Assembly: GCA_964650645.1 (NCBI GenBank)
Contig: CAZYUH010000001.1
Span: forward strand, 153,873-217,872
Source: an uncultured Candidatus Saccharibacteria bacterium
GTDB taxonomy: Bacteria; Patescibacteriota; Minisyncoccia; Phycocordibacterales; SBAW01
Direction of reading: 5' to 3'
Length of the DNA stretch: 64,000 nucleotides
The notes under the pieces are model-generated. The model was not told the origin of the DNA. It was given only the letters and a program-made list of their open reading frames with translations, and ran no database searches. Shown here in pieces: positions 43,292-62,054 of the stretch; the stretch's first letter is position 1, and each line of letters begins with the position of its first letter. Both the position numbers and the translations under genes were made by a program.

Positions 43292-43485
43292 TTGTGGATG
43301 TTTTGCCCGGAACCCGGTCCGGGATACTCCCTTGCCTAGGAGTTACGATTCTGGAGGTATGCCTCGCCCGAAGACTAAGCGGCACCTGGCAGAAAAAAGG
43401 AGCCCTACTGGGCGTGGGGCTACTGTAGCATAGCCGCTACGCGAGCGCAAACGACACGTCTTCTGAGGCCTTCAGCTCCGGTTCA

Positions 43486-43520
43486 TTGACACGCTTGTTT
43501 TTTTAGGTTAATTTTTAAAA
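43486..43520 (+). promoter_or_regulatory. Sigma70-like promoter for the inserted gene cluster
   Basis: TTGACA, 17-nt spacer, TAATTT, in an AT-rich stretch; then RBS AAAGGAG and TTG start at 43548. Confidence 0.4.
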
Positions 43521-43547
43521 AGACACGTAGCACGAAAGGAGCATTGC

Positions 43548-43784
43548 TTGCCGACAGAACCATCCCTCCCCTACGGAGAGAACGTATGCCTGGACACACT
43601 GGCGACCAGGATGACGTACGTCGGTCTCAAGACCATATACGACTGCCGGGCCGAAAATAACCCGTCAAAGCCGATTCCTCCGGACGAGAGGATTTCCAAG
43701 CTTGCGGCGTTCCTCAAGAAACGCTCCATACGGAACGGCCCCGATAATTATCTGGGCAGTGCCGATATTAAAAACGTAGCGTAG
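43548..43784 (+). CDS. Small hypothetical protein (78 aa, TTG start)
   Basis: Strong RBS AAAGGAG 8 nt upstream of TTG. No family recognised. Confidence 0.4.
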   Translation: MPTEPSLPYGENVCLDTLATRMTYVGLKTIYDCRAENNPSKPIPPDERISKLAAFLKKRSIRNGPDNYLGSADIKNVA

Positions 43785-43999
43785 TACCTTCCACATTTCC
43801 CGTTGGGGGTCCTCCAGGACTCCCCGACAGCCCGCCTTGCATATGTCCTCCGCCCCCGACAACAGCAAGGCGGGTTTTTTCTTTTGCGCGGCGCGCGGCC
43901 GGCCCGCAGCGCGCTCATTGACTCAATGTAACTTTTAGTGTCTAGTACCACGCAGTTGCGTACATCATCCGTTCATCCGTACATCCCAAGGAGGGCGTT

Positions 44000-44506
44000 G
44001 TGGCCGTCATCATTCGCATTACCCGCGATTCCGACCCTGAAGAGACCGAAAGAAAGAAGGAGCGCCCGCCCGAGCTGCCCGTAGCGCTCCCGGCGGCGAT
44101 CATGGTACTCATCATCACGTTCTTCTGCGTCACCGCATGCGTGCAGATGTGGGACAAAGGGGCCAAGAACCCCTACGCCCTCTGCGCGCTCCTGTCCCCT
44201 CTTGCCGTTGCCGTCTTCGCCATAGCGTTCTCTTTGGCCGGCCCGGCACGAAAGGCCGCACGGCCGGCGCCGGAACGCCGTCCCGTCAGGGCGGCCATGG
44301 CGCTCCTGTTCGCCCTGGCCTGCGCAGCAGGGTGCGCGCTCATCGCGATTGAGGTGGACTGGAGCAGGGCGCTGAAGAGCTGGGACTGGATTCCGTACGC
44401 TCTGCTGTGCGCGGGACTGGCCCTAATCGCCGTGCAGCTGCTCAACAGCAGCCTCACTTGGTACCAGGGACCCCCGCAAAGCGAGAGGCGCCGCAAGCGC
44501 GTGTAA
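44000..44506 (+). CDS. Hypothetical membrane protein (168 aa, GTG start)
   Basis: RBS AAGGAGG before GTG. Four hydrophobic helices. Confidence 0.45.
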   Translation: MAVIIRITRDSDPEETERKKERPPELPVALPAAIMVLIITFFCVTACVQMWDKGAKNPYALCALLSPLAVAVFAIAFSLAGPARKAARPAPERRPVRAAMALLFALACAAGCALIAIEVDWSRALKSWDWIPYALLCAGLALIAVQLLNSSLTWYQGPPQSERRRKRV

Positions 44507-44625
44507 GCAAGGCGCCAAAGGCCCGGAGCGATGCTCCGGGCCTTTTTCTTTGGACACCGCCCGGTTGCGCGTGCGCAAATACTGGCGCATGATTGCCCAA
44601 GACGCCCCTTACAGGAGTATCCGCC

Positions 44626-45078
44626 ATGAAAGCGCTTGCCGTACTGCTTGCCGTATTCATAAGCAAAGCCGCGCCCATAGAGCTGTGGAGGACGCCCTTG
44701 CCCAGCACGCTGGTCGAGATCCGGCTCGCCAAGGACCGGCGCTTCTACGCCCCGACCCCGCTCTATTTCAAGAACCTCCAGCTAGGCTGCGCGCTGGTAG
44801 CGAAAAGCCTCTCTGAAATTGCGGACTGCCAGCGCCTGGTCAAGGATATCGCAAGGCTGTCCTCGTTCATGGTCGCGGAAGCGATTCATGCGGATAAGCT
44901 GCGAAACTGGGGCCTGCTGGGGGTATCGGACAGCTGGAGCCTGCGCGCGCTGGAGAAAGCCGCCCTTGAAGCGGCCGACAAGAGCGCGGCACCCGCCGAA
45001 CGCTCGTTCGACGAGCTCCTCAGGCGCTACCCCTCCCTCCCCGCCTTCGGCCGCCTGCCGAAGCGCAGGGAGGCATAA
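44626..45078 (+). CDS. Hypothetical secreted protein (150 aa)
   Basis: RBS AGGAG before MKALAVLLAVFISKAAP signal peptide. Followed by terminator 45081..45115. Confidence 0.45.
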   Translation: MKALAVLLAVFISKAAPIELWRTPLPSTLVEIRLAKDRRFYAPTPLYFKNLQLGCALVAKSLSEIADCQRLVKDIARLSSFMVAEAIHADKLRNWGLLGVSDSWSLRALEKAALEAADKSAAPAERSFDELLRRYPSLPAFGRLPKRREA

Positions 45079-45080
45079 CG

Positions 45081-45115
45081 AAAGCCCGCGCCCAGCAAGC
45101 GCGGGCGCTTTCTTG
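45081..45115 (+). terminator. Intrinsic terminator
   Basis: GCCCGCGC-CCAGCAA-GCGCGGGC followed by GCTTTCTTGC. Confidence 0.5.
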
Positions 45116-45214
45116 CACGCACCATCGGCGCAGTTGACAGTACGAATCTATGGGTGTGTAATGGCAACCGGACGCCGCAACTATTCGTACTAACCGCACG
45201 CCTCAGGAGGGCGC

Positions 45215-45493
45215 ATGGATACCGACGAGCCTACTCTCTGCCAGAAGATAGCCATAACGCTCCCGCTCGCCATCGCCTGCATCATGACAATGCTACCGTT
45301 AGGAAGCGCTGCCTGGTACGGGAGATGGTACGGGGCATGGAGCGAAACGGATTGGGAGCCCCTAGACCGTATTATTTTCGCGACAGCATGCCTGACGGTC
45401 CCCGTTTGCGGGACCTATGCGTGGAAGTACCTTATCGCCAAATGCCGCGAAGCAAACTGCCGCAAGGCCAAGTACTACAGGCAGTACCAGTAG
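45215..45493 (+). CDS. Small hypothetical membrane protein (92 aa)
   Basis: RBS AGGAGG before the ATG. Trp/Tyr-rich with Cys pairs. Followed by terminator 45518..45552. Confidence 0.4.
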   Translation: MDTDEPTLCQKIAITLPLAIACIMTMLPLGSAAWYGRWYGAWSETDWEPLDRIIFATACLTVPVCGTYAWKYLIAKCREANCRKAKYYRQYQ

Positions 45494-45517
45494 CATCCGC
45501 CCCCGCAGCGGAACCCG

Positions 45518-47187: not shown

Positions 47188-47229
47188 AAATAAAAACAGC
47201 CTTAATCCAAGGAGCAAGGCTGTTTTTGC
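47188..47229 (-). terminator. Intrinsic terminator after rplE (operon split point)
   Basis: Minus-strand hairpin CAGCCTT-...-AAGGCTG followed by TTTTTATTT, immediately after the L5 stop. Confidence 0.55.
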
Positions 47230-47234
47230 AATGC

Positions 47235-47783
47235 TTATTTCTTGAAAGGAAAGCCGAGGTGGGCCAGATAGGCCTTGGCCTCCGCCTTGCTCTTGGCGGT
47301 AGTGACGACCGTCACCGCCATGCCGAAGACGTCCCTGATGTCCTCGTCGGCGGTCTCGGGGAACACCGAGTGCTCCTTGATGCCGAGCGTGTAGTTGCCC
47401 ATATCGTCAACGGAGCTGGCGCTGATGCCCTTGAAGTCCTTGGTGCGCGGCAAAGCAACATGGATGAGGCGGTTGAGGAAGTCCTCGGCGCGCTTGCCGC
47501 GCAGGGTGACCTGGTAGCCCACCTTGTCGCCGATGCGGGTCTTGTAGGTGGCGATGGCCTTCTTGGCGCCGCGCACGACCGGCTTCTGACCCGTGATGCG
47601 TCCCAGGCGCTCGGCGACGAGCTCCACCTTGTTCTTGTCCTTCGCCATCTTGCCAACGCCAACGGACACGACGACCTTGGCCACCTTGGGGGTCTGCATG
47701 ACATTGCTCCAACCCAAGTCCCCCTTGAGCGTATCAAAGGTCTTCTTCTGGTTGTCCTGGATGAGGGGGGTCTTGTGTGCCAT
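47235..47783 (-). CDS. rplE: 50S ribosomal protein L5
   Basis: Canonical L5 (182 aa). Confidence 0.9.
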   Translation of the reverse strand: MAHKTPLIQDNQKKTFDTLKGDLGWSNVMQTPKVAKVVVSVGVGKMAKDKNKVELVAERLGRITGQKPVVRGAKKAIATYKTRIGDKVGYQVTLRGKRAEDFLNRLIHVALPRTKDFKGISASSVDDMGNYTLGIKEHSVFPETADEDIRDVFGMAVTVVTTAKSKAEAKAYLAHLGFPFKK

Positions 47784-47788
47784 ACGAT

Positions 47789-48016
47789 TTACTTCTTGAG
47801 GGCTACCTTGCTTGCGTGTATCGGGTGCTGCTTCTTGACTATCTGGCCCGCCTGGCCGGCGCGGCGCGGCTTCTGGTGCTTGGTACGCATCCCGATGCCT
47901 TCCACCACCACCATGCCGAGCTTGGGGTACGCGCGGGTCACCTTGCCGGACTTGCCCTTCTCGTTGCCCGAGAGGATGACTACCGTGTCGCCTTTCTTAA
48001 CGTGGATCTTGTTCAT
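47789..48016 (-). CDS. rplX: 50S ribosomal protein L24
   Basis: MNKIHVKKGDTVVILSGNEKGKSGKV. Confidence 0.9.
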   Translation of the reverse strand: MNKIHVKKGDTVVILSGNEKGKSGKVTRAYPKLGMVVVEGIGMRTKHQKPRRAGQAGQIVKKQHPIHASKVALKK

Positions 48017-48024
48017 ACAGGTGG

Positions 48025-48405
48025 TTATACGACCTCGGGGGCGCGGGAAATGATGGTCTGGTAGCCAAGCTCCTGGAGCTCGCGCGGTATCGGGCCGAAG
48101 ATGCGGCCGGCCTTGGGCTCCTTCTTATCCTTGGCGCCCCAGTCGAGCACGACGACCGCGTTATCGTCGAAGCGGATGTAGCTGCCGTCCTTGCGGCGGA
48201 AAGGCTTGCGCTGGCGCACGACCACGCCATGGAGCACGTCCTTCTTCTTCACCGCCTTGCGCGGCTCGGCGGACTGCACCGAGAGGATGACTATCTCCCC
48301 TATCTCGGCGTAGCGCTTCTTGGACGCTCCGGGAATCTTGAAGATGCGTCCGATCTTCGCGCCGGAGTTGTCTGTAACAGTTACGAGTGTGCGGTCTTGG
48401 ATCAT
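48025..48405 (-). CDS. rplN: 50S ribosomal protein L14
   Basis: MIQDRTLVTVTDNSGAK... The N-terminal extension in ORF 48025..48474 is rejected. Confidence 0.9.
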   Translation of the reverse strand: MIQDRTLVTVTDNSGAKIGRIFKIPGASKKRYAEIGEIVILSVQSAEPRKAVKKKDVLHGVVVRQRKPFRRKDGSYIRFDDNAVVVLDWGAKDKKEPKAGRIFGPIPRELQELGYQTIISRAPEVV

Positions 48406-48410
48406 ACGAT

Positions 48411-48662
48411 TTACGAGTGCGAGGCGGCGCCAGAGACGATCTCGAAGCGCTTGGTCTTGGAGAGCGGGCGGCACGAGCGGATGGTGACCTTGTCGCCCTC
48501 CTTTGCCTTGTTGCCGGGGTTATGGGCGGCGAAGCGCGAAGTCTTCTTGAGGTACTTCTTGTACTTGGGGTGCTTTACGTAGCGGGATACGGCCACTATG
48601 GCGGACTCCGCCATCTTGTCGGATACGACTACCCCCGTGAATTCTTTGCGCTTTGTTTCCAT
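48411..48662 (-). CDS. rpsQ: 30S ribosomal protein S17
   Basis: KEFTGVVVSDKMAESAIVAVSRYVKHPKYKKY. Confidence 0.9.
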   Translation of the reverse strand: METKRKEFTGVVVSDKMAESAIVAVSRYVKHPKYKKYLKKTSRFAAHNPGNKAKEGDKVTIRSCRPLSKTKRFEIVSGAASHS

Positions 48663-48663
48663 A

Positions 48664-48855
48664 TTAGTTCGATGCCTTGCCGGCCTGGGTCAGGGCGCGG
48701 GCCACTTCCTTGCGCAGCGACCGGGCGGCCTTCACATTACGATTCTTACTACCTGCGACGCCAAAGCGCAAGGCCCTCAGCTCTTCGCGCTTGTCCTGGG
48801 CGAGCTTCATGAGCTCGGCTTTGGAGTGTTTCGTGAGGTCTTGTTTCTTTGCCAT
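48664..48855 (-). CDS. rpmC: 50S ribosomal protein L29
   Basis: 63 aa; KAELMKLAQDKREELRALRF. Confidence 0.85.
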   Translation of the reverse strand: MAKKQDLTKHSKAELMKLAQDKREELRALRFGVAGSKNRNVKAARSLRKEVARALTQAGKASN

Positions 48856-48882
48856 ACGGGTATTATGCGATGAATGCGCGGA

Positions 48883-49302
48883 TTAATGGCGCGCGACCAC
48901 CTTCGCCTTCAGCGGGAGCTTCTTGGCGGCCTTGACGAGCGCCTCTGTAGCGACCGCGTCGCTCACGCCGTCCACCTCGAACAGCACGCGCCCGGGCCAG
49001 ATCTGCACCTCGTAGCCCACCGGGTCGCCCTTGCCCTTGCCGAGCTTCACCTCGGGCGGCTTCTGGGTGTAGGGCTTGTCCGGGAAGATGCGGATCCAGC
49101 TGCGGCCGGTCTTGCCAAGCGAGCGGGCGATGACCTTGCGGGCCGACTCTATCTGGTTGGAGCGCACGCGGGCGGACGTAACCGCCTTGAGCCCATGGCT
49201 CCCGAAGGCCACGGTAATGCCGCGCGTGGCGACCTTGGCCTTCTTGGGGTTAACGCGCATGGTGTGCGACTTGCGGAATTTTACTTTCTTAGGGAAAAGC
49301 AT
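48883..49302 (-). CDS. rplP: 50S ribosomal protein L16
   Basis: MLFPKKVKFRKSHTMRVNPKKAKVATRG. Confidence 0.9.
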   Translation of the reverse strand: MLFPKKVKFRKSHTMRVNPKKAKVATRGITVAFGSHGLKAVTSARVRSNQIESARKVIARSLGKTGRSWIRIFPDKPYTQKPPEVKLGKGKGDPVGYEVQIWPGRVLFEVDGVSDAVATEALVKAAKKLPLKAKVVARH

Positions 49303-49308
49303 AACGGT

Positions 49309-49974
49309 TTATTTCTTCGCGTTGGCGGCAAACACCTCGCCGCGGTATATCCACACCTTGATGCCGACGACGCCCAAAGGCAGGTTGGCGCGCTCGCGGG
49401 CGAAGTCGATGTCGGAGCGGAAGGTCTGCAGGGGCACGCGGCCCTTCTTGAGGTTCTCGACGCGGGACATGGAGCCGCCGCCGAGCATGCCGGATATCTG
49501 GACGCGCACGCCCTTCACGTCGCGGTTGGCGCCCACCTTCTCGATGGTCTGCTTCATTACGCGGCGGAACGGCATGCGCTTCTCGAGACCCTCGGCGACC
49601 ATGTAGGCCACTATGGCTGCGTTGCTCTCCGGCGAGCGGATCTCCTCGATATCGAGCTTGATCTCGGGGACCGGGAGCTTGCGGCTCTTGAGGAAGTCCG
49701 CTATCTGCTGGCGCAGCTTGGTCGAGCCCTCGCCGGAGCGGCCGATGAGAACGCCCGGGCGGGAGGTCTTTATGATGACGCGCAGCTGCTTGGCGTTGCG
49801 CTCTATCTCGAGCCCGCCCACGTACATGCCGCGCAGGGACTTCATGAGGTGCTCGCGCAAAAGGACGTCCGCCTTGAGGTTCTCGCGGTAGACGGGGCCG
49901 GAGGCGTACCAGCGATGGCGCCAGTCCTTGATGATGCCGAGCCTATGGGCGAATGGGTTTACTACTTTAGACAT
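49309..49974 (-). CDS. rpsC: 30S ribosomal protein S3
   Basis: KH-domain S3 (221 aa). Confidence 0.9.
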   Translation of the reverse strand: MSKVVNPFAHRLGIIKDWRHRWYASGPVYRENLKADVLLREHLMKSLRGMYVGGLEIERNAKQLRVIIKTSRPGVLIGRSGEGSTKLRQQIADFLKSRKLPVPEIKLDIEEIRSPESNAAIVAYMVAEGLEKRMPFRRVMKQTIEKVGANRDVKGVRVQISGMLGGGSMSRVENLKKGRVPLQTFRSDIDFARERANLPLGVVGIKVWIYRGEVFAANAKK

Positions 49975-49975
49975 A

Positions 49976-50374
49976 TTAGTTGTGTGCGGCTTCCGCTTGC
50001 TCAGCCTTCTCTGCCTTTGCGGCCTTCAGGGCCTTGCCCTTCTTGGGAGCCTTCTTGGAGAGAGCGAGCGTAATGTGGCTGGTGCGCTTGAGGATCTGGC
50101 TGGCGCGGCCGCGGGCGCGGGGCATGTGGCGCTTGAAGACGATGCCGCCGTTGACCTGGATGGAGGATACGTAGAGGTCGGCGGCGCCCATCTTCGAGTT
50201 GGCCACGGCCGACTCGACGAGCTTCTTCATCGGCTCGCCGGCGCGCTTAGGCAGGACGGAAAGCAGGCTGATGGCATTGGACGCCGTCTTGCCGCGGATG
50301 AGGTCGGCCACGAGGCGTACCTTGCGGGGCGCCTGGCGGTAGTTTGAAAGCTTTGCGGTAGATGCGGTGTCCAT
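49976..50374 (-). CDS. rplV: 50S ribosomal protein L22
   Basis: Canonical L22 (132 aa). Confidence 0.9.
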   Translation of the reverse strand: MDTASTAKLSNYRQAPRKVRLVADLIRGKTASNAISLLSVLPKRAGEPMKKLVESAVANSKMGAADLYVSSIQVNGGIVFKRHMPRARGRASQILKRTSHITLALSKKAPKKGKALKAAKAEKAEQAEAAHN

Positions 50375-50380
50375 ACGGGA

Positions 50381-50725
50381 TTACTTCTTCTTGGCGTCGC
50401 CGGCGGCCTTTGCAGCCTGGGCGGACGCGATCTCGGCCTGCTTGGCCTTCGCCTCCTGCTCCTTCTGCATCTTGCCTCCGTGGCGCACGAACTTCTTGGT
50501 CGGGCTGAACTCGCCCAGGCGGTGGCCCACCATGTCCTCGTTTACGAGGACCTCTATGTGGGTCTTGCCGTTGTGGACGCCGAACTTGAAGCCCACCATC
50601 TCGGGGGCTATCTGGGAGCGGCGCGCCCACGTCTTTATCATCTCAGTGGTCTGAGGCTTCTTCCCCTCGATCTTCTTGAGGAGCTTCTCGTCGACGTAGG
50701 GTCCTTTCTTTACTGAGCGTGCCAT
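50381..50725 (-). CDS. rpsS: 30S ribosomal protein S19 (Lys/Ala-rich C-terminal extension)
   Basis: [20 protein letters not shown] ... [17 protein letters not shown]. Confidence 0.9.
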
Positions 50726-50884
50726 GTAGCAATTTAAAATCCCTGCCCGCCACAGTCAGGAGAGCGACTGGGCCTTGCGGCTGGGAGTGGGTCTAATGTA
50801 CAGGAAAGCCCTCCCGGAGTCAAATCGGCTTGCTCGAAGGAACTGCGCGGTATAGCTTTAAGCGGGAAAAGAAGGAGACGCCCA

Positions 50885-51076
50885 ATGCGCGCCTACACGT
50901 TCCGCTACATCGACGGCACCTCGAAACCCTCCAGAACGCTCCACGCCAAGGATGATGGCGAATTTTATGAACTGCTCAGGGAATTCCTGGGCAGTGACAA
51001 GCAGTTCGTGCCGGGAAGCATCGCGTATGTTGAAACCGGCAAAGTCGCCGACCCTCCCCCGCACACAGGCGCCTAG
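50885..51076 (+). CDS. Small hypothetical protein (63 aa), opposite strand, inserted between rplB and rpsS
   Basis: RBS AAGGAG 7 nt before the ATG. Followed by bidirectional terminator 51095..51122. Confidence 0.4.
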   Translation: MRAYTFRYIDGTSKPSRTLHAKDDGEFYELLREFLGSDKQFVPGSIAYVETGKVADPPPHTGA

Positions 51077-51094: not shown

Positions 51095-51122
51095 AACCGC
51101 CCCTTTCGGGGCGGTTTTTTCT
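51095..51122. terminator. Bidirectional intrinsic terminator
   Basis: AACCGCCCCTTTCGGGGCGGTTTTTTC; also lies directly after the rplB stop on the minus strand. Confidence 0.6.
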
Positions 51123-51123
51123 A

Positions 51124-51975
51124 TTACTTGTTTCCGCGGGTGCGCTTGCCCACCTTGCGGCGCGAGACGATGAGGTAGTTGGAGTACTTCTTGGGCGCGC
51201 GGGTCTTCTGGCCCTTGCCGGTCGGCTTGCCCCAGAGCGACTTGGCGCGCTTGAGGCCGCGGCCCTGGCGGCCCTCGCCGCCGCCGTGCGGGTGGTCTAC
51301 CGGGTTCATGGCGGTGCCGCGGACGGTCGGGCGCTTGCCCATCCAGCGGGAGCGGCCCGCCTTGCCTATCGTGCGCAGGTGGTGCTCGTCGTTGGACACT
51401 TCGCCGATGGTCGCCCAGCAGGTGTCGAGCACCTTGCGCACCTCTGAAGACGGCATCTTGAGGTCGGCATAGCCCTGGTCGCGGGCGATAAGCTCGATGT
51501 AGGTGCCCGCGGCGCGGCCCAGCTTGCCGCCGTTGCCCGGCTTTATCTCGACGTTGTAAACGAACGAGCCGATGGGGACGTTCTTCAGAGGCATGCGGTT
51601 GCCCGGAGCGGCGAGCGCGGTCTCGGACGTATCGATGGTCTGGCCCACGGTTACCGACTTGGGGAGGAGCATGTAGCGGCGCTCGCCGTCCGGGTAAAGC
51701 ACGAGGCCGATGAAGCCCGAGCGGTTCGGATCGTACTCGACGGTCTCGATTTTCGCGGGGATATGCTTCTTGTAGCCGAAATCCACGTCGCGGAAGAGGC
51801 GCTTGTGGCCGCCGCCCTTGTGGCGCACCGAGATGCGGCCGGCGTTGTTGCGGCCCACATCGCGCTTGCCGCCGCGGGTGAGCGCCTTGTGCGGCTCATT
51901 GGTCGTGACCTTCCCCTTGAAGGTGACGGTGGTCATGTGGCGGCGCGACTTGGTGTAAGGTTTGTAGGATTTCAT
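51124..51975 (-). CDS. rplB: 50S ribosomal protein L2
   Basis: Canonical L2 (283 aa). Confidence 0.9.
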   Translation of the reverse strand: MKSYKPYTKSRRHMTTVTFKGKVTTNEPHKALTRGGKRDVGRNNAGRISVRHKGGGHKRLFRDVDFGYKKHIPAKIETVEYDPNRSGFIGLVLYPDGERRYMLLPKSVTVGQTIDTSETALAAPGNRMPLKNVPIGSFVYNVEIKPGNGGKLGRAAGTYIELIARDQGYADLKMPSSEVRKVLDTCWATIGEVSNDEHHLRTIGKAGRSRWMGKRPTVRGTAMNPVDHPHGGGEGRQGRGLKRAKSLWGKPTGKGQKTRAPKKYSNYLIVSRRKVGKRTRGNK

Positions 51976-51988
51976 AAAAGTATGCGGG

Positions 51989-52276
51989 CTAGACGAGCTC
52001 GATGGTGTCGCCCTTCTTCAGGTGCACGTAGGCCTTCTTGCCCGCGCGGGTCTGGCCCTTGCGGTTGGTGCCGCGGGTCATGGTCTGCTTGCGCGGGGTG
52101 TTGACCACCGTCACGCGGCGCGGGGTCACGTTGAAGGTCTCGCGTATGGCGGCGGCCACCTGCGCCTTGTTGGCGTCGCGGGCGATATTGAAGACGTACA
52201 CGCCCGTTGCGGCCAGGTAGGCGGCCTTCTCGGTGATGCGCGGCGCAAGCAGTATTTGTGAGGAAAGCTTTTTCAT
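51989..52276 (-). CDS. rplW: 50S ribosomal protein L23
   Basis: Canonical L23 (95 aa). Confidence 0.85.
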   Translation of the reverse strand: MKKLSSQILLAPRITEKAAYLAATGVYVFNIARDANKAQVAAAIRETFNVTPRRVTVVNTPRKQTMTRGTNRKGQTRAGKKAYVHLKKGDTIELV

Positions 52277-52280
52277 AATT

Positions 52281-52979
52281 TTATTTCGCGGCCTTGCCGG
52301 AAACGGCGGCCTTGGCGGAGAGCTTCTTCTGCAGGGTCTCTATGGCCGCCTTGGGGTCCGCGATGACCAGGTACTTGGCGCTGAGCACCGAGACCGGGTT
52401 GAGGTCCGCAAGCGCGCCCGCGCGCACGTGGCCCATGTTGGCGAACGACTTGAGCGTGTGCGCGTTGCGCGAAGGCAGGGCGACGTAAGCGGCGTTGCGC
52501 GCCTTGCCGAGGCCCGAGAAATTCTTGCCGAGCGCCGTCATCATGGCCTTGGCCGTAGCGGTCTTGGGAGCGTTCATTTCGAGCGAGTCGACGAAGATGA
52601 CCTCGCCGTCCTTGTGCTTGCGCGAGAGGGTGACCAGGAGGGCCTTCTGGCGCATGGCGCGGTTTATCTTTACCTCGTAGTTCTTGTCCGCGCGCGGGCC
52701 GTGGGTCACGCCGCCGCCCTTCCATATGGGAGACCTGCTGGAGCCGTGGCGGGCGCGGCCCGTACCCTTCTGCTGCCAGGGCTTGCGGCCGCCGCCGCGC
52801 ACCTCGCCGCGGGTCTTGGTGTGCGCGGTGGACTGGCGGGCGTTCGCCTGCATCGAGGTGACCACCTGGTGGACCAGGTCGGCGTTCCAGGGCAGGCCGA
52901 AGATATTCTCCGGCAGAGCCACCGTGCCCGCCTCCTTGCCCTCCATGTTGTAGATCTTGGTTTCCATAGTGGTATTCAA
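52281..52979 (-). CDS. rplD: 50S ribosomal protein L4
   Basis: Canonical L4 (232 aa). Confidence 0.9.
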   Translation of the reverse strand: MNTTMETKIYNMEGKEAGTVALPENIFGLPWNADLVHQVVTSMQANARQSTAHTKTRGEVRGGGRKPWQQKGTGRARHGSSRSPIWKGGGVTHGPRADKNYEVKINRAMRQKALLVTLSRKHKDGEVIFVDSLEMNAPKTATAKAMMTALGKNFSGLGKARNAAYVALPSRNAHTLKSFANMGHVRAGALADLNPVSVLSAKYLVIADPKAAIETLQKKLSAKAAVSGKAAK

Positions 52980-52984
52980 ATGCG

Positions 52985-53623
52985 TTAGCCGCGGATTTCT
53001 ACGACGGTGCCGCGGCGGCCGGGCACGGCGCCCGCGATCACGAGCTCGTTGGTCTCCGGCAGCACCTGGAGCACCGCGAGATTGCGCACCGTCACCCTGT
53101 CCTGGCCCATGCGGCCGGCCATGCGCATACCCTTGGCGACGCGGCCTCCCGCGCGGCCGCCGGAGCCGCCGATGGAGCCCGGTGCGCGCTCGGAGTGCTT
53201 CTGGCCGTGCGAGCGCGGGCCGCCCTTGAAGTTATAGCGCTTCACCACGCCCTGGAAGCCGCGGCCCTTGGAGATCGCCGAGACAACGACCTTGTCCCCC
53301 ACGGCAAACGACGAGACATCCACCGTCGAGCCTACCTCGGGGAAATTGGTGTCTATCGGTCCGTTCTTGGTGGCCGGGCGCGGGCGCAGCTCGCGGAACT
53401 CGCGCAGGGACTTGCCCTTGGCGTGGCCCACCTGGGGCTTTGCAATGCGGCCGTCCTTGGCCTCGAAGGCGCCCAGCTGCACGGCGGCGTAGCCGTCCTT
53501 CTCGGCGGTCTTTATCTGGGTGACGGTGTTGGGGGCGGCGTTGATGACGGTCGCGGCAAAGGCCCGGCCCTCCTCCGTGAAGACAGTCGTCATCTTGCCC
53601 TTGGTTCCAAGGATGAATTTCAT
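52985..53623 (-). CDS. rplC: 50S ribosomal protein L3
   Basis: MKFILGTKGKMTTVFTEEG... Upstream extension in the ORF track rejected. Confidence 0.9.
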   Translation of the reverse strand: MKFILGTKGKMTTVFTEEGRAFAATVINAAPNTVTQIKTAEKDGYAAVQLGAFEAKDGRIAKPQVGHAKGKSLREFRELRPRPATKNGPIDTNFPEVGSTVDVSSFAVGDKVVVSAISKGRGFQGVVKRYNFKGGPRSHGQKHSERAPGSIGGSGGRAGGRVAKGMRMAGRMGQDRVTVRNLAVLQVLPETNELVIAGAVPGRRGTVVEIRG

Positions 53624-53775
53624 GGTTTCTATTGGTCCCACTGCGCGAGCCAAAGCTCTGGGACATGGACAACCCTATGTCTAGAGAGTCCCCAAGACTA
53701 TACACAACCGCCCGGGTTTACGCAAGAAACGGAAAAGCCGCCGGCGGGACGCCGGCGGCTTAGCATCTTTCATGG

Positions 53776-54578: not shown

Positions 54579-54908
54579 ATTACAGCTTAATGACTACTCC
54601 CTCATCCTAGTATAGGCGGGTTCGGAACGCGAGGATGCGGAAAATCCCCCATGCATGGGGGATTTTCCGCTTAATTCCTTTACTCGGCGCACAGGTACTG
54701 CCCTGGGATTGCATGTCGAGTAAAAAAAGCGACGCCTAGAAGTCGCTCGGAACTTGCATTATTTGGCTGCAGACAAACCAATGAGCACCTTTTTCCGAGT
54801 ATACGCTACCATGTTCGATTCATCAAAAACAGCCTTGTGGAAAAGAAAGAATCCCCTCGTGCGAGGGGATTCTTCCAGACCGTCTTTCCTTTTTATCAGC
54901 GGAAACGG

Positions 54909-55271
54909 CTATACCATTTTCACGTCGATGGTGACGCCGGACGGGAGGCTGAGGTTGGTCAGCGCCTCGATGACCTTCGGGGTCGGTTCGAGGATGTCGA
55001 TGACGCGCTTGTGCACGCGCATCTCGAACTGCTCGCGCGCGTCCTTGTAGACGAAGGTCGAGCGGTTGACCGTGTACTTCTTGATTTCGGTCGGCAGGGG
55101 TATAGGGCCCGCCACCTTCGCATCGTAGCGCAGGGCGGTGTCGAGTATCTGCTTGACTGAGGCGTCGAGCACTTTGTGCTCGTACGCGCGGACCTTGATG
55201 CGCAGCTTCTGCGCGGGAGCTTCTGCCTTCTTGGCGCGCTTGGGCGCCGCCTTCTTCGCTTCGGTAGCCAT
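54909..55271 (-). CDS. rpsJ: 30S ribosomal protein S10 (Lys/Ala-rich N-terminal extension)
   Basis: [26 protein letters not shown]... Confidence 0.85.
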
Positions 55272-55438
55272 ATGTTGTCTGGGCCTAGTTCTCCCCTCTT
55301 TAAAGGGGTAACCTATGCCCGATTAGCTTACGCTTACAGATTAATGTCGAACACGTAGAGTATGCCCTACTCCCTCCCTTTTAGCAATAGAAAAGCCCCG
55401 GCGGATGCCGGGGCTTTTCGTTCAAACCTTAGAGTAAG

Positions 55439-56632
55439 TTAGGCAATGATCTTCGTCACGACGCCGGCGCCTACCGTCTTGCCGCCCTCGCGGACCGCGA
55501 AGCGGGTCTTGTCCTCGAGCGCGACCGGCGCTACGAGCTTGACCTTGAAGGTGATGGTGTCGCCCGGCATGACCATCTCGGTGCCTGCCGGAAGGGTTAC
55601 CTCTCCGGTCACGTCCGTGGTGCGGACGTAGAACTGCGGCTTGTAGCCCGAGAAGAACGGCGTGTGGCGGCCGCCCTCGTCCTTGGTGAGGATGTACACC
55701 TCGGCCTCGAACTCGGTGTGCGGGGTCACGGAACCCGGCTTGGCGAGCACCTGGCCGCGGTGGATGTCATCCTTGGCGGTGCCGCGCAAGAGGATACCCG
55801 CGTTGTCGCCCGCCTGGCCCTGCTCGAGCTGCTTGTTGAACATCTCGATGCCGGTAATGGTGGTCTTGGTGGTGGGCTGGAGGCCGACGATCTCGACTTC
55901 CTCGCCAACCTTGACGACGCCGCGCTCGATGCGGCCGGTCACCACGGTGCCGCGGCCTTCGATCGAGAAGATATCCTCGACCGGCATGAGGAACGGCTTG
56001 TCGAGCTCGCGCTCGGGGTCAGGGAAGAACGAGTCCATCGTATTGACGAGCTCGAGCACCTTCTGCGACCACTCGGAATTGATGTCGGTGGACTCAAGCG
56101 CCTTGAGGCCCGAGCCGCGGATAACCGGAGCGCCCTCGTAGCCCTGCTTGGCCAGGAGCTCCTTGATCTCCTCCTCGACGAGCTCGAGAAGGTCCTTGTC
56201 CTCGACCATGTCGCACTTGTTGAGGAAGACGATGAGCTTCGGTACGCCGACCTGCTTTGCGAGGAGCACGTGCTCGCGGGTCTGGGGCATGAGGCCGTCG
56301 GTCGCCGCGACCACGAGGACCGCGCCGTCCATCTGGGCGGCGCCGGTAATCATGTTCTTGATGTAGTCGGCGTGGCCCGGCGCGTCGATGTGCGCGTAGT
56401 GGCGGTTAGGGGTCTCGTACTCGGAGTGGTGGAGCGCGATGGTAATGCCGCGCGCCTTCTCCTCAGGAGCGTTGTCGATGCCGTCGACGCCCTCGAGGCG
56501 GGCGCTGTAGCCCTGCGCCTTCGCCATGTCGAGCGTGTGGAGAATGGATGCGGTAAGGGTGGTCTTGCCGTGGTCGACGTGACCGATGGTGCCGACGTTC
56601 ATGTGCGGCTTTGCCCTCTCAAATGTTGCCAT
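55439..56632 (-). CDS. tuf: Elongation factor Tu
   Basis: [24 protein letters not shown] and the rest of the canonical EF-Tu (397 aa). Confidence 0.95.
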
Positions 56633-56711
56633 AAATAATCCCTAAATTAATAACTCGATAATCTGCTAAGCACAGGAAAGCACCCCTAGTGCATTGCGGC
56701 TAACTATAACC

Positions 56712-56805
56712 CAGTGGAGTGAGGAGCGCAAACTTGTTTGCGGCTCCGAACGGAACGCCGGTTATATGGGCTTCTAGCCCATATACCCCAGTGGAGTGAG
56801 GAGCG
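56712..56805. promoter_or_regulatory. Two 24-nt direct repeats flanking a palindrome upstream of tuf
   Basis: CCCAGTGGAGTGAGGAGCGCAAAC occurs at ~56712 and ~56782. Between them TATATGGGC-TTCTA-GCCCATATA is a 9-bp perfect palindrome. Confidence 0.4.
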
Positions 56806-56820
56806 CAAACGCTTCCCGGC

Positions 56821-57576
56821 CTAGTAGAGACCGGCCTTAAAGAGCGCGCTTGAAAGCCCGTCGGTTATGACGTGCAGGGGCGCCATCTCGACCGCGGCCA
56901 TGAAATCGGTGGCATTGCCTACGGTTTCATACAGGCTCTGCGGCAGGAAGGACACCGTCGCCCAGAGCGACTCCCCCGCCGGCGCGCGCGCGTACGCGGG
57001 CTCCGGAGCGAGCGTGGCCGCGGCCGCCTGCGCGACAGCGTCGATTGCGAACAGGTCCACGTAGGCCGAGAGCACGCCGGCAAGCGCGTAGTTAACCTCA
57101 AGCACCTGGTCTGCAACGATGTTTATAGAATTCGCCGCCGCGGTCATCGGCACCATGGCGACGCTTGCCGCCAAAGCGGACGCGTCTACCTCTATGCGGT
57201 AGGCGGCGGGCGCGTGCCCGGGCATGGGGTGATGCGGCATAGGCGGCACGCCGGGCACGGGAGGCATGGGCGGCACATGCGCCGCAGACGGCGTCGGCGC
57301 GTACGACACGGGCTCCGGCGCCTGCGCAGCCTGCGAAGCGTCGGCAGTCCGGCCTTCAAGCACATCGCGCACGTCGCCTATGGTCGCCTGGGGCACGTCG
57401 TACGCAGAAAGAAGCTCCGCGACCGCGTCCAGCTGCTGGCCGGTGAGGCCGGACGCGCTGGCGGGCGCCGGCATCGCGCAGAGCGCGAGCGCGCAGGCCA
57501 TTGCAAACGCAACGAACCCGAGGCGCAGGTCGATAGTAAGGCTGAGGGAGCGGGCGTGCGTGGTGCTGGCGTTCAT
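56821..57576 (-). CDS. Hypothetical secreted Ala/Pro-rich protein (251 aa)
   Basis: Signal peptide FVAFAMACALALCAMPAPASA. PMPPVPGVPPMPHHPMPGH proline/His-rich linker. Confidence 0.4.
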   Translation of the reverse strand: MNASTTHARSLSLTIDLRLGFVAFAMACALALCAMPAPASASGLTGQQLDAVAELLSAYDVPQATIGDVRDVLEGRTADASQAAQAPEPVSYAPTPSAAHVPPMPPVPGVPPMPHHPMPGHAPAAYRIEVDASALAASVAMVPMTAAANSINIVADQVLEVNYALAGVLSAYVDLFAIDAVAQAAAATLAPEPAYARAPAGESLWATVSFLPQSLYETVGNATDFMAAVEMAPLHVITDGLSSALFKAGLY

Positions 57577-58924: not shown

Positions 58925-59088
58925 AGCGAATGAGTATGTTAAATGGCCCCTTAATTCGACGCGCTTACAGTACCACAAGACGGCCGGGAGGCAACCTTGT
59001 TACAGGTGCCGGGACCGTCCGGCCCCTGGCGCAAAAAGCGCCGCTCCGGATGCCGGAGCGGCGCTTTCGGTACCCGCATTGCGGAGGC

Positions 59089-61236
59089 TTACTTGCGGGA
59101 CGCGACGATGGTCGCGGCAACCTGCGGAGGCACGACCTCGTAGTGGTCGAACTCCATGGTGAAGCTCGCGCGGCCCTCGCTCATGGAGCGCAGGGCAGTC
59201 GTGTAGCCGAACATCTCCGAGAGCGGCACCTTGGCCTTGATGACACGGGCGAGGCCGCGCTCCTCCATGCCCTCTATCTGGCCGCGCTTGGAGTTGAGGC
59301 TGCCGGTAACGTCGCCCATGAACTTGTCGGGGGTTACAACCTCGACCTTCATGATGGGCTCGAGCAATACCGCCTTGGCCTTCTCGGCCGCTGCCTGGAA
59401 GCCCATGGACGCCGCGATTTTGAACGCGATTTCCGAGGAGTCCACGTCGTGGTAGGAGCCGTCGTACAGCTCGACCGAGATGTCCACCATCTTGAAGCCG
59501 GCAACGAAGCCGCGCTCCATCGCCTCGCGCACGCCGTCCTCGACGGGGCCGATGAACTCGTTGGGCACGACGCCGCCCTTGATGTTGTTTATGAACTCGA
59601 AATGGTCCTCGCGCGTGACGTTCTTGGCCTGCTTCTTGTCCTCGTCGACGGCCTCAAGCGGCTTGATGCGCAGGCGCACGTGGCCGTACTGGCCCTTGCC
59701 GCCCGTCTGCTTGATGTACTTGCCCTCTGCCTCTGCCATGGCCTGGATGGTCTCGCGGTACGCCACCTGCGGCTTGCCGGTATTGGCCTCGACGCCGAAC
59801 TCGCGCTTCATGCGGTCAACCAAAATCTCCAAGTGCAGTTCGCCCATGCCCGATATGAGCGTCTCGTTGGTCTCGGTGTCGGTGGTGACGCGGAAGGTCG
59901 GGTCCTCGTCGGAGAGCTTCCTCATGGCGATGCCCATCTTCTCCTGGTCGGCCTTGGTCTTAGGCTCGATGCGCATGGAAATGACCGGCTCGGGGATGAT
60001 GATGCCTTCAAGGACGACGGGGTTCGCCTCCTCGCAGAGCGTGTGGCCGGTCTTTGCGGACTTCAGGCCCACCGCCGCGGCAATCTCGCCGGCGAACACC
60101 TTCTTCACCTCCTCGCGCTTGTCGGCCTGGAGGCGCACTATGCGGCCCAGGCGCTCTTTCTCGCCGGTCGAGGAGTTGATGATGTAGGAGCCGGCCTCGA
60201 CGGTGCCCGAGTACACGCGGAAGAACGTCAGCTGGCCCACGAACGGGTCGGCCTGGAGCTTGAACGCGAGCGCGGAGAACGGCTCGTCGTCGGCGGCGTG
60301 GCGCTCGCGCGGCTCGCCGGTCTTGGGGTCGGTGCCGGTGACCGGCGGAAGGTCCAAGGGCGACGGGAGATAGTCGACGACCGCGTCAAGCACCAGCTGG
60401 ACGCCGCGGTTCTTGAGCGACGAGCCGGCGTAGACCGGGAATATCTTATTGTCGATGACCGCGCGGCGCAGGACGCGCTTGAGGTCCTCGAGCGACGGCT
60501 CTGTCCCGTCGAGGTACGCGGTCATCAGGGCGTCGTCGTTCTCGACGATCTTCTCGACGAGCTCGGCGCGGAACTTCTTGGCGTCCTCCATCATGCCCTC
60601 AGGGACGTCGTAGGTCGAGACCAGCTCGCCCATGGAGCCGTCGAACTTGTAAGCCTTCATGGTAAGGAGGTCGACCAGGCCGTCGAACTCGGACTCGGCG
60701 CCGATGGGGAGCTGCATGCGCACCGCGCGCGGGCTCAGGCGGTCGATGATGGACGCGAACGACTTCTCGAAGCTGGCGCCCATGCGGTCCATCTTGTTTA
60801 TGAAGCACAGGCGCGGGACGCTCGCCTCGTCGGCGTAGCGCCAGTTGGTCTCGGACTGCGACTCGACGCCCGCCACGCCGTCGAAGACGCATACGGCGCC
60901 GTCAAGGACGCGCAGGGAGCGCTTCACCTCGACGGTGAAGTCGATGTGGCCCGGCGTGTCGATGACGTTGAAGCGGTACTTCTTGGAGGCGTCCTTCTTA
61001 TCCTCCTCGTCGGTCTTGCTCCAGAAGCAGGTGATGGCGGCCGCGGTAATGGTGATGCCGCGCTCGCGCTCCTGCTCCATCCAGTCGGTGGTGGCCTCGC
61101 CCTCGTGCACCTCGCCTATCTTGTGCTGGCTGCCGGTGTAATAGAGGATGCGCTCCGAAGTGGTGGTCTTGCCGGCGTCGATGTGGGCGATGATGCCGAA
61201 GTTGCGGATCTTCTCGAGTGGATAGTCGCGATTCAT
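59089..61236 (-). CDS. fusA: Elongation factor G
   Basis: AHIDAGKTTTSERILYYTG ... canonical EF-G (715 aa). ORF 59089..61890 trimmed to MNRDYPLEKIRNFGI. Confidence 0.95.
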   Translation of the reverse strand: MNRDYPLEKIRNFGIIAHIDAGKTTTSERILYYTGSQHKIGEVHEGEATTDWMEQERERGITITAAAITCFWSKTDEEDKKDASKKYRFNVIDTPGHIDFTVEVKRSLRVLDGAVCVFDGVAGVESQSETNWRYADEASVPRLCFINKMDRMGASFEKSFASIIDRLSPRAVRMQLPIGAESEFDGLVDLLTMKAYKFDGSMGELVSTYDVPEGMMEDAKKFRAELVEKIVENDDALMTAYLDGTEPSLEDLKRVLRRAVIDNKIFPVYAGSSLKNRGVQLVLDAVVDYLPSPLDLPPVTGTDPKTGEPRERHAADDEPFSALAFKLQADPFVGQLTFFRVYSGTVEAGSYIINSSTGEKERLGRIVRLQADKREEVKKVFAGEIAAAVGLKSAKTGHTLCEEANPVVLEGIIIPEPVISMRIEPKTKADQEKMGIAMRKLSDEDPTFRVTTDTETNETLISGMGELHLEILVDRMKREFGVEANTGKPQVAYRETIQAMAEAEGKYIKQTGGKGQYGHVRLRIKPLEAVDEDKKQAKNVTREDHFEFINNIKGGVVPNEFIGPVEDGVREAMERGFVAGFKMVDISVELYDGSYHDVDSSEIAFKIAASMGFQAAAEKAKAVLLEPIMKVEVVTPDKFMGDVTGSLNSKRGQIEGMEERGLARVIKAKVPLSEMFGYTTALRSMSEGRASFTMEFDHYEVVPPQVAATIVASRK

Positions 61237-61304
61237 AATGATATGGAGTAAATAAAAGCCGCCTGAGGCGTTACGGCTATAGTAGTTCAATCGGGGCAAA
61301 AAGC

Positions 61305-61340
61305 AAAGGGCGGGCGCTTCAGCGCCCGCCCCTCTTTTCC
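61305..61340. terminator. Bidirectional intrinsic terminator
   Basis: AAAGGGCGGGCGCTTCAGCGCCCGCCCCTCTTTTCC. Confidence 0.55.
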
Positions 61341-61546
61341 AAGCGAGCCTTCCCTGCCGCGGCCCGCTTAAGCTCGCGCTCTTCCCACTCGGCGTACGGG
61401 CGCAGGTGCGGGGGCTCGAACCCCTGCGACCGCATGCTGCGGTCGCTCGCATAGTCGGCCGCCGCCCACCCCGGCGGGCACGGGTCGCTCGGATCGAGCG
61501 GCGCCCGCGGGTCGATATAAGGATCGAACTTGTAGCCCACTCGCGC
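61319..61546 (-). CDS. Small hypothetical protein (75 aa, GTG start)
   Basis: RBS AAAGGAGG 5 nt upstream of GTG; VGYKFDPYIDPRAPLDPSDP... Stop lies in the terminator loop. Speculative. Confidence 0.3.
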   Translation of the reverse strand, partial: ARVGYKFDPYIDPRAPLDPSDPCPPGWAAADYASDRSMRSQGFEPPHLRPYAEWEERELKRAAAGKARLEKRGGR

Positions 61547-61603
61547 CTCCTTTCCTTCCTTCTGAAAGTATAAGGCCGCGGATTTTTGAAGTACACTGCC
61601 CCT

Positions 61604-62050
61604 ATGGATAACGTGACCGAGCCGTACTTCGAGTGCTGCCATTGCTCCCTGGAGGTGCGCCCGAGCGGGGCGATGGGAAGCGCGCACCGCAACCACTGCA
61701 CGCACTGCCTGTGGTCAAAGCACGTCGACACCGCGCCCGGCGACCGCGCCTCGTCCTGCGGCGGCTGCATGGAGCCCGTGGGCGTGACGCTCAAGCGCGA
61801 GGGCGCTGACAAGTACGGGCGCGAGAGGCTCGGCGACGTGATGCTCGCGCACCGGTGCGCGGGGTGCGGGCTCGTGAACATAAACCGCATCGCGGCCGAC
61901 GACCCGGAAGACCTGGTACTGGGCGCATTCGAAAAGTCCCTCGCCCTGCCCCAAGAAGCCCTGGACGAACTCGCTAAACTCGATATCGCCCTGTTAGGCG
62001 CGGATGAAAAGCCGCTCCTAATGGAGCGGCTGTTCGGGAAGCCTTTTTAG
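61604..62050 (+). CDS. RNHCP-domain protein (opposite strand, between fusA and rpsG)
   Basis: CCHCSLEV ... HRNHCTHCLWSKHVD ... CGGC ... HRCAGCG matches the RNHCP zinc-ribbon-like domain signature. Confidence 0.5.
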   Translation: MDNVTEPYFECCHCSLEVRPSGAMGSAHRNHCTHCLWSKHVDTAPGDRASSCGGCMEPVGVTLKREGADKYGRERLGDVMLAHRCAGCGLVNINRIAADDPEDLVLGAFEKSLALPQEALDELAKLDIALLGADEKPLLMERLFGKPF

Positions 62051-62054
62051 CGGA

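Follow-up and report, generated by a model that had tools for sequence, protein, structure and literature searches.

Five expanded junctions of the str-S10-spc ribosomal gene cluster point to a modular layout shared by many related Patescibacteria

The str-S10-spc ribosomal protein gene cluster is the textbook case of extreme conservation of gene order and operon structure, and its genes are standard markers for placing uncultured bacteria. In a 64,000-nucleotide stretch of a contig of metagenome origin (CAZYUH010000001.1, positions 153,873 to 217,872, assembly GCA_964650645.1; the whole stretch is referred to here as the window), the order of this cluster is kept, yet it is split at five points by other genes, some of them on the opposite strand. 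The question raised by the locus is whether these are insertions peculiar to one genome, as a preliminary description of the sequence proposed, or part of a different organisation of the cluster. A comparison with related species makes it likely that the str-S10-spc cluster has undergone a clade-wide modular reorganisation, in which the spacers between modules serve as insertion hotspots.

The window has a guanine-plus-cytosine (GC) content of about 64%, and its ribosomal genes all lie on the minus strand. According to the listing of open reading frames (ORFs), the frame plot of GC at third codon positions (GC3) and tblastn anchoring, the order is rpsL-rpsG-fusA-tuf-rpsJ-rplCDWB-rpsS-rplV-rpsC-rplP-rpmC-rpsQ-rplNXE-rpsZ-rpsH-rplFR-rpsE-rplO-secY-adk-map. 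This is the canonical order from rpsL to map that the preliminary description had recognised, and matching Pfam labels for the ribosomal genes are found on colinear public contigs of about 98.5% identity (gene callers and precomputed hits). The genes are placed as follows:

62551-62958, minus strand: rpsL (ORF; Pfam S12 on the colinear, 98.8%-identical contig L094)
62055-62525, minus strand: rpsG (ORF; Pfam S7 on the same colinear, 98.8%-identical contig L094)
59089-61236, minus strand: fusA (Pfam EF-G domains)
55439-56632, minus strand: tuf
54909-55271, minus strand: rpsJ
51124-53653, minus strand: rplC-rplD-rplW-rplB
47235-50725, minus strand: the nine genes rpsS-rplV-rpsC-rplP-rpmC-rpsQ-rplN-rplX-rplE
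43106-43291, minus strand: rpsZ, whose unit runs on through rpsH, rplF, rplR, rpsE, rplO, secY, adk and map
38088-~38820, minus strand: map (Peptidase_M24)

The gene for L30 (rpmD) is absent from the cluster between rpsE and rplO, as follows from the spacing of only 5 bp between these two genes. Absence of L30 is reportedly a trait of the Candidate Phyla Radiation (CPR). A 933-amino-acid (aa) extended fusA ORF and many long GC-rich antisense ORFs were rejected as spurious on the basis of Pfam coverage and the GC3 frame plot.

For the comparison, one genome per GTDB species was scanned with RplC, which gave 80 loci: 72 from Patescibacteria (Adlerbacteria, Nomurabacteria, Paceibacterota and 'Minisyncoccia', with RplC 92 to 49% identical) and eight from non-CPR outgroups. 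The 26 cluster proteins were then mapped by tblastn onto all loci. The five gaps, with boundaries anchored by tblastn, have the following size and content in the window, and the following size in the 72 species:

rpsG/fusA: 818 bp in the window, with an RNHCP-domain gene (plus) and the 73-aa orf73 (minus); median 265 bp, above 300 bp in 45% of the 72 species
fusA/tuf: 2456 bp in the window, with a secreted PG_binding_1 and Ig-like protein (minus) and a 251-aa Ala/Pro-rich protein (minus); median 690 bp, above 300 bp in 80%
rpsJ/rplC: 1255 bp in the window, with a DUF1761 gene (minus) and a membrane protein of about 105 aa (minus); median 611 bp, above 300 bp in 64%
rplB/rpsS: 398 bp in the window, with orf63 (plus); median 831 bp, above 300 bp in 75%
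rplE/rpsZ: 3943 bp in the window, with a 34-aa ORF and a 449-aa GT2 gene (minus) and with orf92, orf150/161, orf168 and orf78 (plus); median 727 bp, above 300 bp in 68%

At the other 20 junctions such widening is rare: 18 never exceed 300 bp, tuf/rpsJ does so in 7% of the species and rplC/rplD in 1%. When the five hot junctions and tuf/rpsJ are left aside, gaps above 300 bp number 0 of 310 in close relatives and 1 of 463 in distant relatives, and the eight non-CPR loci are compact at all five hot junctions. Since tight junctions are found in bacteria in general as well as in these outgroups, the layout is most simply regarded as derived within the radiation. Among the 19 loci in which all junctions are covered, the maximum sum of the gaps is 9.7 kb, and the window, with about 8.9 kb, comes near the top of the range.

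The five gaps lie where the preliminary description had located them, and its GT2, DUF1761, PG_binding_1 and RNHCP domains were all upheld by Pfam. Some of its details need amendment. Opposite-strand genes are indeed present, but in three gaps (rplE/rpsZ, rplB/rpsS and rpsG/fusA) rather than two; the "five plus-strand genes" between rpsZ and rplE are correctly positioned but amount to six ORFs, four on the plus strand, with the GT2 gene and the 34-aa ORF on the minus strand; and the 75-aa ORF between fusA and rpsG exists with a length of 73 aa. The description of opposite-strand genes inside this cluster as very unusual applies to bacteria in general and not to this clade, in which about 30% of the residues of gap ORFs are antisense.

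The lineage of the window is Adlerbacteria-like, and Adlerbacteria belong to the Parcubacteria group in the NCBI taxonomy. Many of the relatives' metagenome-assembled genome (MAG) records are titled 'uncultured Candidatus Saccharibacteria bacterium' (L001-L005, L009, L013, L021 and others), and two are titled as Gammaproteobacteria. The RplC proteins of these records are 50-92% identical and their synteny is of the Parcubacteria type; the titles look like generic mislabels. An exact-protein look-up of the window RplC (a TTG-start ORF) returned no record.

How the cluster may be expressed is suggested by the signals that flank each break. About seven ribosomal units are predicted, namely rpsL-rpsG, fusA, tuf, rpsJ, rplC-rplB, rpsS-rplE and rpsZ to map, which agrees with the earlier suggestion of several transcription units. 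The putative limits of the last six, all on the minus strand, are:

59034..61304: fusA unit, with a promoter-like site and short hairpin leader at 61237-61304 (upstream alignment)
55391..56730: tuf unit, with promoter-like TTGCGC-N17-TATAGT and a leader at ~56633-56730 (alignment of 15 sequences, the window and 14 relatives)
54727..55366: rpsJ unit, with a conserved leader at 55272-55366 (alignment)
51095..53730: rplC-rplB unit, with promoter CTTGCGTAAA...TGTATAGT, conserved in about 20 relatives, a leader at 53624-53730 and the genes placed at 51124-53623
47190..50823: rpsS-rplE unit, with promoter TTGACT-N17-TACATT (50795-50823) and a structured leader at 50726-50801
43106..43422: start of the rpsZ unit, with a structured leader at 43292-43422 (alignment, model)

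When the 25 closest species are aligned, the regions upstream of fusA, tuf, rpsJ, rplC, rpsS and rpsZ share a conserved -35 box (TTGACT or TTGCAT), a conserved extended -10 box (TGTAGTAT or TGTATAGT) and a conserved 5' leader with a stem-loop ending in a U-run. The presence of conserved promoters and leaders downstream of each break suggests that the units are old. The 167-bp tuf/rpsJ spacer likewise has a terminator together with a promoter-like site.

The opposite ends of the units are marked by hairpins followed by U-runs, all of them on the minus strand:

61305-61334: terminator after orf73 (fold -31.3 kcal/mol, z -4.5)
59034-59068: terminator after fusA (fold -44 kcal/mol, z -4.5)
57664-57691: terminator after the PG-binding gene (z -3.7)
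55391-55419: terminator after tuf (fold -30.9 kcal/mol, z -4.45)
54727-54748: weak U-rich hairpin after rpsJ (z -0.9)
53735-53761: terminator after the small membrane gene (z -3.85)
51095-51116: terminator after rplB, bidirectional (z -5.3)
47190-47228: terminator after rplE (fold -19.8 kcal/mol, z -2.5)

The intrinsic terminators that had been noticed directly after rplE and rplB are confirmed as strong hairpin-plus-U elements, and another such element directly follows fusA. After rpsG, a strong hairpin comes only past the cargo gene orf73. In the related loci, a terminator-like hairpin is detected within 110 nt of the stop codon of rpsG in 61%, of fusA in 64%, of rpsJ in 69%, of rplB in 73% and of rplE in 78% of loci; the same uniform detector finds one in 21% of random segments and in about 0% of the other junctions. 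By these in silico predictions the cluster would not be organised as three long, co-transcribed compact operons; it has five gaps of 0.4-3.9 kb, terminator-like hairpins and conserved promoter-like sites.

Two of the leaders are candidates for regulatory RNAs. The rpsS leader (50726-50801, minus strand) consists of a long two-helix stem-loop ending in a U-run and lies between the conserved promoter and rpsS, with equivalents in L001-L005, L007, L010, L012, L014 and L017. Compensatory changes on both sides are seen in 12 of its 17 predicted pairs, and pairing is kept in 96% of cells; the alignments of both leaders were fitted to their models, a procedure that favours pairing. The observed value was reached by 0 of 500 shuffles, and pairing falls to about 40% once the partners are slid along. 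The rpsZ leader (43292-43422, minus strand) has a GCCC/GGGC hairpin with a U6 run, next a conserved helix (UUCUGnnAGGUGCC...GGCAnACCnnCAGAA) whose loop carries an inserted, variable hairpin, and last a third hairpin. It has equivalents in 15 related loci including L087, and 9 of its 18 predicted pairs show compensatory changes. In 1.29 Mb the covariance models of the rpsS and rpsZ leaders match only their own sites, at 12 and 16 loci respectively, including L087, a locus that was not used in training. Both leaders thus combine covarying structure with a fixed upstream position, as is typical of structured cis-regulatory leaders, and a regulatory role is suggested for them; that the rpsZ leader mimics the rRNA site for S8 or S14 is speculation. 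Rfam 15 gave no match at the gathering threshold in the whole window, and at E<=5 the only matches in the region are sub-threshold ones on terminator hairpins, with neither leader matched. The structure of the rplC leader was only partly recovered, as the analysed segments cut its 3' part.

Taken together, these features suggest a mechanism in which gene order was kept while three long operons were replaced by a chain of about seven short modules. Each of the six modules from fusA onwards would have its own promoter-like site (a TTGaca-like -35 and an extended TGnTAnnnT -10) and 5' leader, and each would end at a terminator-like hairpin, which is weak after rpsJ and, for rpsL-rpsG, strong only after orf73. 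As the module boundaries would be neither co-transcribed nor translationally coupled, we propose that gain or loss of DNA at these sites is harmless to the expression of ribosomal proteins. Such a 'safe-harbour' property would be the reason for the hotspots, and five of the six boundaries may in this way have become long-lived sites at which unrelated cargo accrues and turns over in either orientation. A bolder version can be offered only tentatively: much of the Parcubacteria/Paceibacteria radiation may have rebuilt the control of its ribosomal proteins into about seven promoted modules, each with its own undescribed leader or attenuator RNA (rpsS and rpsZ at least; probably rplC, rpsJ, tuf and fusA), the boundaries being stable, clade-wide 'safe-harbour' hotspots. 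Surface and envelope genes, in part antisense, would keep being recruited to this region, the one with the highest expression in a tiny genome.

The cargo itself is highly variable. Among the 393 ORFs of at least 45 aa in the expanded gaps, 315 are singletons, and even the largest family comprises only nine ORFs. About 70% of the cargo ORF residues are co-directional with the ribosomal genes. The Pfam scan covered 219 cargo ORFs of at least 100 aa (149 co-directional, 70 antisense). Co-directional families include PG_binding_1 (10/149), PKD, CAAX protease, epimerases and DAG kinase; DUF1761, Band 7, NYN and PemK are further families of the cargo, and antisense ORFs with solid Pfam domains carry DUF3298, NUDIX, NTP_transferase, DUF6280 and others. 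Neither a transposase nor a classical integrase is found among the 25 most frequent co-directional families or the 11 antisense families, and one cargo ORF matched 'Integrase repeat unit' (INT_rpt). Most of the cargo consists of unrelated envelope, membrane, secreted or miscellaneous genes. The cargo genes of the window, from rpsG/fusA to rplE/rpsZ, are:

61604..62050, plus strand: RNHCP-domain gene, antisense to the cluster and divergent from fusA
61319-61540, minus strand: orf73, with a GTG start, a strong Shine-Dalgarno sequence AAGGAAAGGAGG and the terminator at 61305-61334 overlapping its stop codon
57821-58978, minus strand: ORF of the secreted PG_binding_1 and Ig-like protein (PGB385), likely start at 58924; Pfam PG_binding_1 3e-7
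56821..57576, minus strand: 251-aa Ala/Pro-rich protein with an N-terminal signal or transmembrane (TM) segment
54141-54578, minus strand: DUF1761 gene (PF08570, 3.9e-28, 98.6 bits against a cutoff of 31)
53776-~54100, minus strand: small membrane protein of ~102-108 aa, terminator at 53735-53761
50885..51076, plus strand: orf63, antisense and convergent with rplB
46994-47098, minus strand: 34-aa ORF (MPMFDITVKLIEFGMMGVVLSNVASKMARHLSKE) in an AT-rich patch, stopping 2 nt before the GT2 start codon
45642-46991, minus strand: GT2 synthase-like gene of 449 aa (PF00535 6e-32, QRLRW motif), co-directional with the ribosomal genes
45215-45493, plus strand: orf92, 2-TM protein, terminator at 45519-45542
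44593/44626-45078, plus strand: orf150/161, secreted (signal peptide), terminator at 45084-45106
44000-44506, plus strand: orf168, 4-TM protein, terminator at 44517-44545
43548-43784, plus strand: orf78, divergent from rpsZ, terminator at 43831-43885

These genes appear to differ in age. The RNHCP gene, the PG-binding protein, DUF1761, orf63 and orf78 are probably old residents (33-75% identity with relatives), and the GT2 gene together with orf161 (one closer relative), orf92, orf168, orf73 and the small membrane protein (strain or species level) would be recent additions. For the last four, neither the 80 species loci nor L087-L092 contain relatives; strain-level contigs do carry them. Turnover is visible even among strains: those 98.5% identical to the window have an extra segment of about 170 bp between RNHCP and rpsG (window 62050-62055 versus L094 10438-10615), which holds a bidirectional terminator and a 25-aa hydrophobic ORF (MKPFILWLLGVPVFVIILLYAFHIL). 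This segment is absent from the window and from a 100%-identical contig.

The GT2 protein of the rplE/rpsZ gap has C-terminal TM helices; it scores 173 bits against the PgaC_IcaA equivalog (TIGR03937, poly-beta-1,6-GlcNAc synthase), below the cutoff of 422, and in the NCBIfam search of cargo proteins only GT2 gave matches, all under equivalog cutoffs. The 34-aa ORF and the GT2 gene are called as genes in six independent assemblies and may be translationally coupled. The other genes of the gap (orf78, orf168, orf150/161 and orf92) form four antisense single-gene units, each with its own terminator (GC3 frame plot; called in L081-L086). GT2 and orf161 are shared only with L087, in which GT2 is 83% identical and lies at the same junction.

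Three other explanations of the locus can be set against a clade-wide modular reorganisation. That the junctions are assembly or binning artefacts, with ribosomal fragments joined to unrelated DNA, would be in line with the metagenome origin and with the heterogeneous GC elsewhere in the window (39-48% at 5-7 kb and 21-24 kb). However, 13 public contigs encode the exact GT2 protein, and six of them, from different JGI, ENA and Logan samples, were retrieved. Five were aligned to the window (L081-L083, L085 and L086); starting at rplC or rplX and crossing the island as far as secY, they match it colinearly at 95-99% identity. A Logan contig is 100% identical across fusA-orf73-RNHCP-rpsG, and the stretch from rplB to beyond rpsL, at the end of the window, is covered by ENA contigs of 98.5% identity, so that independent contigs from at least six samples cross all five junctions, with identities of 95-100%. 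Species-level relatives also have the same neighbours at the junctions. Since independent assemblies from other samples show the same junctions, a chimeric assembly, against which the preliminary description had advised a check, is excluded, and an artefact in general is extremely improbable. A second explanation holds that the extra genes are recent, genome-specific insertions, acquired through mobile elements or horizontal transfer by a superoperon that is otherwise intact. It is favoured by the absence of the GT2 island from L001 and L002 (RplC 92% and 86% identical), by a 59%-identical GT2 homologue in a different context in another genome, by the lack of relatives of orf92, orf168, orf73 and the small membrane protein, and by a slightly lower composition at 43-44 kb. 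By contrast, each of these five junctions is widened in 45-80% of the 72 related species, with the cargo alone being variable; RNHCP, the PG-binding protein, DUF1761, orf63 and orf78 occupy the same junctions in relatives, and the conserved promoters and leaders after each break point to old units. Nor are there traces of a mobile element: no integrase, transposase or recombinase gene is present in the gaps of the window (Pfam and NCBIfam on gap proteins), no tRNA lies in 43-63 kb, and around the GT2 island only short, chance-level repeats occur in 43100-47400. For the layout, genome-specific insertion is largely refuted already, and we regard it as an improbable account overall. The preliminary description had itself accepted that an interrupted order found universally in related genomes would make it ancestral rather than insertional; judged in this way, the interrupted layout is lineage-wide. 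Its other suggestion, that the gaps are hotspots for small insertions, is supported by the five junctions widened clade-wide with variable cargo.

A third explanation is that some of the inserted genes, with RNHCP, orf78 and orf63 as candidates, are translation partners kept by selection, acting as lineage-specific ribosome-associated factors, as the preliminary description had suggested, as regulatory factors, or through antisense transcription. RNHCP belongs to family PF12647 (89.7 bits against a cutoff of 24, E 1.2e-25); in 38 homologues R29, N30 and C32 are invariant, H31 is nearly so and the Cys residues are conserved, and its four conserved Cys pairs or motifs are typical of zinc ribbons. 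It lies antisense beside fusA also in an Adlerbacteria genome (73% identity), in a Paceibacterota genome (75%) and in strain-level contigs, so that junction and orientation are retained over 73-97% protein identity. In the window RNHCP and rpsG are convergent, with stop codons 4 bp apart, and as the terminator segment of about 170 bp is missing here, a transcript reading on past rpsG would run antisense through RNHCP into orf73. Likewise, orf78 is always divergent from the rpsZ leader (window, L001, L020 and L087); a search for its homologues found nothing beyond a copy of the window protein at 99% identity. Yet RNHCP is missing in seven relatives that span rpsG/fusA (L003, L010, L014, L016, L018, L023 and L025), its homologues occur also in Alphaproteobacteria and Chloroflexia, the protein model gave no structural match hinting at function, a literature search on the domain found nothing, and most cargo consists of unconserved envelope, secreted or miscellaneous genes. 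The positional retention of RNHCP next to fusA leaves room for a local role, but selection for translation partners is an unlikely explanation of the inserted genes.

Several observations also weigh against a clade-wide modular reorganisation. The split is not universal, because some relatives keep tight junctions: rpsJ/rplC measures only 17-67 bp in L038, L045, L052 and L055, and L072 is compact throughout. The history of the split may be one early event or repeated events, either being compatible with the data. In the relatives, gene boundaries are extrapolations of tblastn alignments, and the gap ORFs stem from naive calling. Only a weak terminator follows rpsJ, and after GT2 none was seen. 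A consensus promoter scan of the window alone was not above chance (6 sites, with 4.7 expected from shuffled sequence), and for this reason the promoter claims rest on conservation across relatives. The rpsS and rpsZ leader motifs were detected only in the closest family (window, L001-L020 and L087), so that for distant relatives modularity is deduced from gaps and hairpins alone. Promoters and terminators are predictions from sequence, as are the presumed start and stop sites of transcription, and the hairpin-plus-U elements of the leaders could be attenuators, which would allow read-through coupling between modules.

The proposed modular cluster shares features with several known systems. 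The gene set and its order from rpsL to map are those of E. coli and B. subtilis, and junctions within a module are tight or overlapping. However, the predicted unit boundaries are not the classical tuf/rpsJ and rpsQ/rplN ones (rpsQ and rplN overlap here); the breaks instead fall inside str (rpsG/fusA and fusA/tuf), S10 (rpsJ/rplC and rplB/rpsS) and spc (rplE/rpsZ), and L30 is absent. In Gammaproteobacteria and Bacilli a few genes have been inserted between the operons of the ribosomal cluster and later lost or further separated (PMC8046335). These resemble the present cargo in being few, unrelated, variable genes at operon joints with the order kept, but they are scattered and lineage-specific, lie mostly at classical boundaries (tusDCB, bfd-bfr, ilv-leu) and in some cases come with transposable elements. 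By contrast, the gaps described here occupy five fixed junctions in most species of a large radiation, three of them inside S10/spc, with heavy cargo turnover and common antisense genes, and in the closest family the downstream units carry their own conserved promoter and leader.

The leaders resemble those of autoregulated ribosomal protein operons (the E. coli S10 leader with L4, spc with S8, and the r-leader families of Rfam) in having a promoter-proximal stem-loop before the first gene of the unit, a U-run and compensatory changes. They differ from them in matching no Rfam family and in the units concerned and their positions (upstream of rpsS and rpsZ). The GT2 gene and the four small genes recall a genomic island, being present in one sublineage and absent from close relatives; unlike genomic islands and integrative elements, the block has no integrase, transposase, tRNA target or flanking repeats, and its composition is near the genome average. 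A full-text search of the literature on ribosomal operon organisation in CPR/Patescibacteria found no description of the pattern, and AGNOSTOS (PMC9132574) and FESNov (PMC10849945), which were consulted, have no bearing on it.

If the modular reading is correct, selection on co-transcription can relax without loss of synteny, as a whole radiation of ultra-small bacteria would keep the order in a cluster split at five fixed points within the classical operons. The leaders would add candidate regulatory RNAs from a group whose gene regulation has hardly been studied, and the junctions would be predictable sites of accessory-gene turnover, mainly of envelope and secreted proteins, with likely relevance to an episymbiotic lifestyle. 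Gaps and antisense genes inside the marker cluster of CPR MAGs are also not by themselves a sign of mis-assembly.

Among the remaining cargo genes, orthologues of the PG-binding protein are present at fusA/tuf in L002 (64%), L090 (55%), L006, L014 and L017. Its neighbour, the 251-aa Ala/Pro-rich protein, has no match in Pfam and is found in L094/L096, L002 giving partial matches only. DUF1761 lies at rpsJ/rplC also in L002 and L023, and a 108-aa ORF is predicted at the position of the small membrane protein on 98.5%-identical strain contigs. The 73-aa orf73 gene is likewise predicted in independent assemblies. For orf63, whose Shine-Dalgarno sequence and terminator are conserved and which has homologues in L002 and L005 and a predicted gene in L081, the comparison with L002 gives 19, 22 and 31 mismatches at codon positions 1, 2 and 3, a bias towards the third position that favours this strand as the coding one. 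The antisense 68-aa ORF in the same gap gives 32, 21 and 22, and was rejected as a coding frame on this substitution pattern.

Outside the gaps, map is followed by gmk (guanylate kinase) and ndk (nucleoside diphosphate kinase) at 36229-38018 on the minus strand. They stand in place of infA-rpmJ-rpsM-rpsK-rpsD-rpoA-rplQ, so that in this genome the alpha operon is separate from the cluster. Two stretches of lower GC (5001-7000 and 21001-24000; 39-41% and 45-48%, against about 64% elsewhere) may be foreign islands. The window also contains a tmRNA gene at 20431-20811 on the plus strand (tag peptide AKSVASPYFSANQFSFAYARA), a tRNA-Ile (anticodon TAT) at 13896-13968 and a tRNA-Ser(GCT) at 7171-7264.

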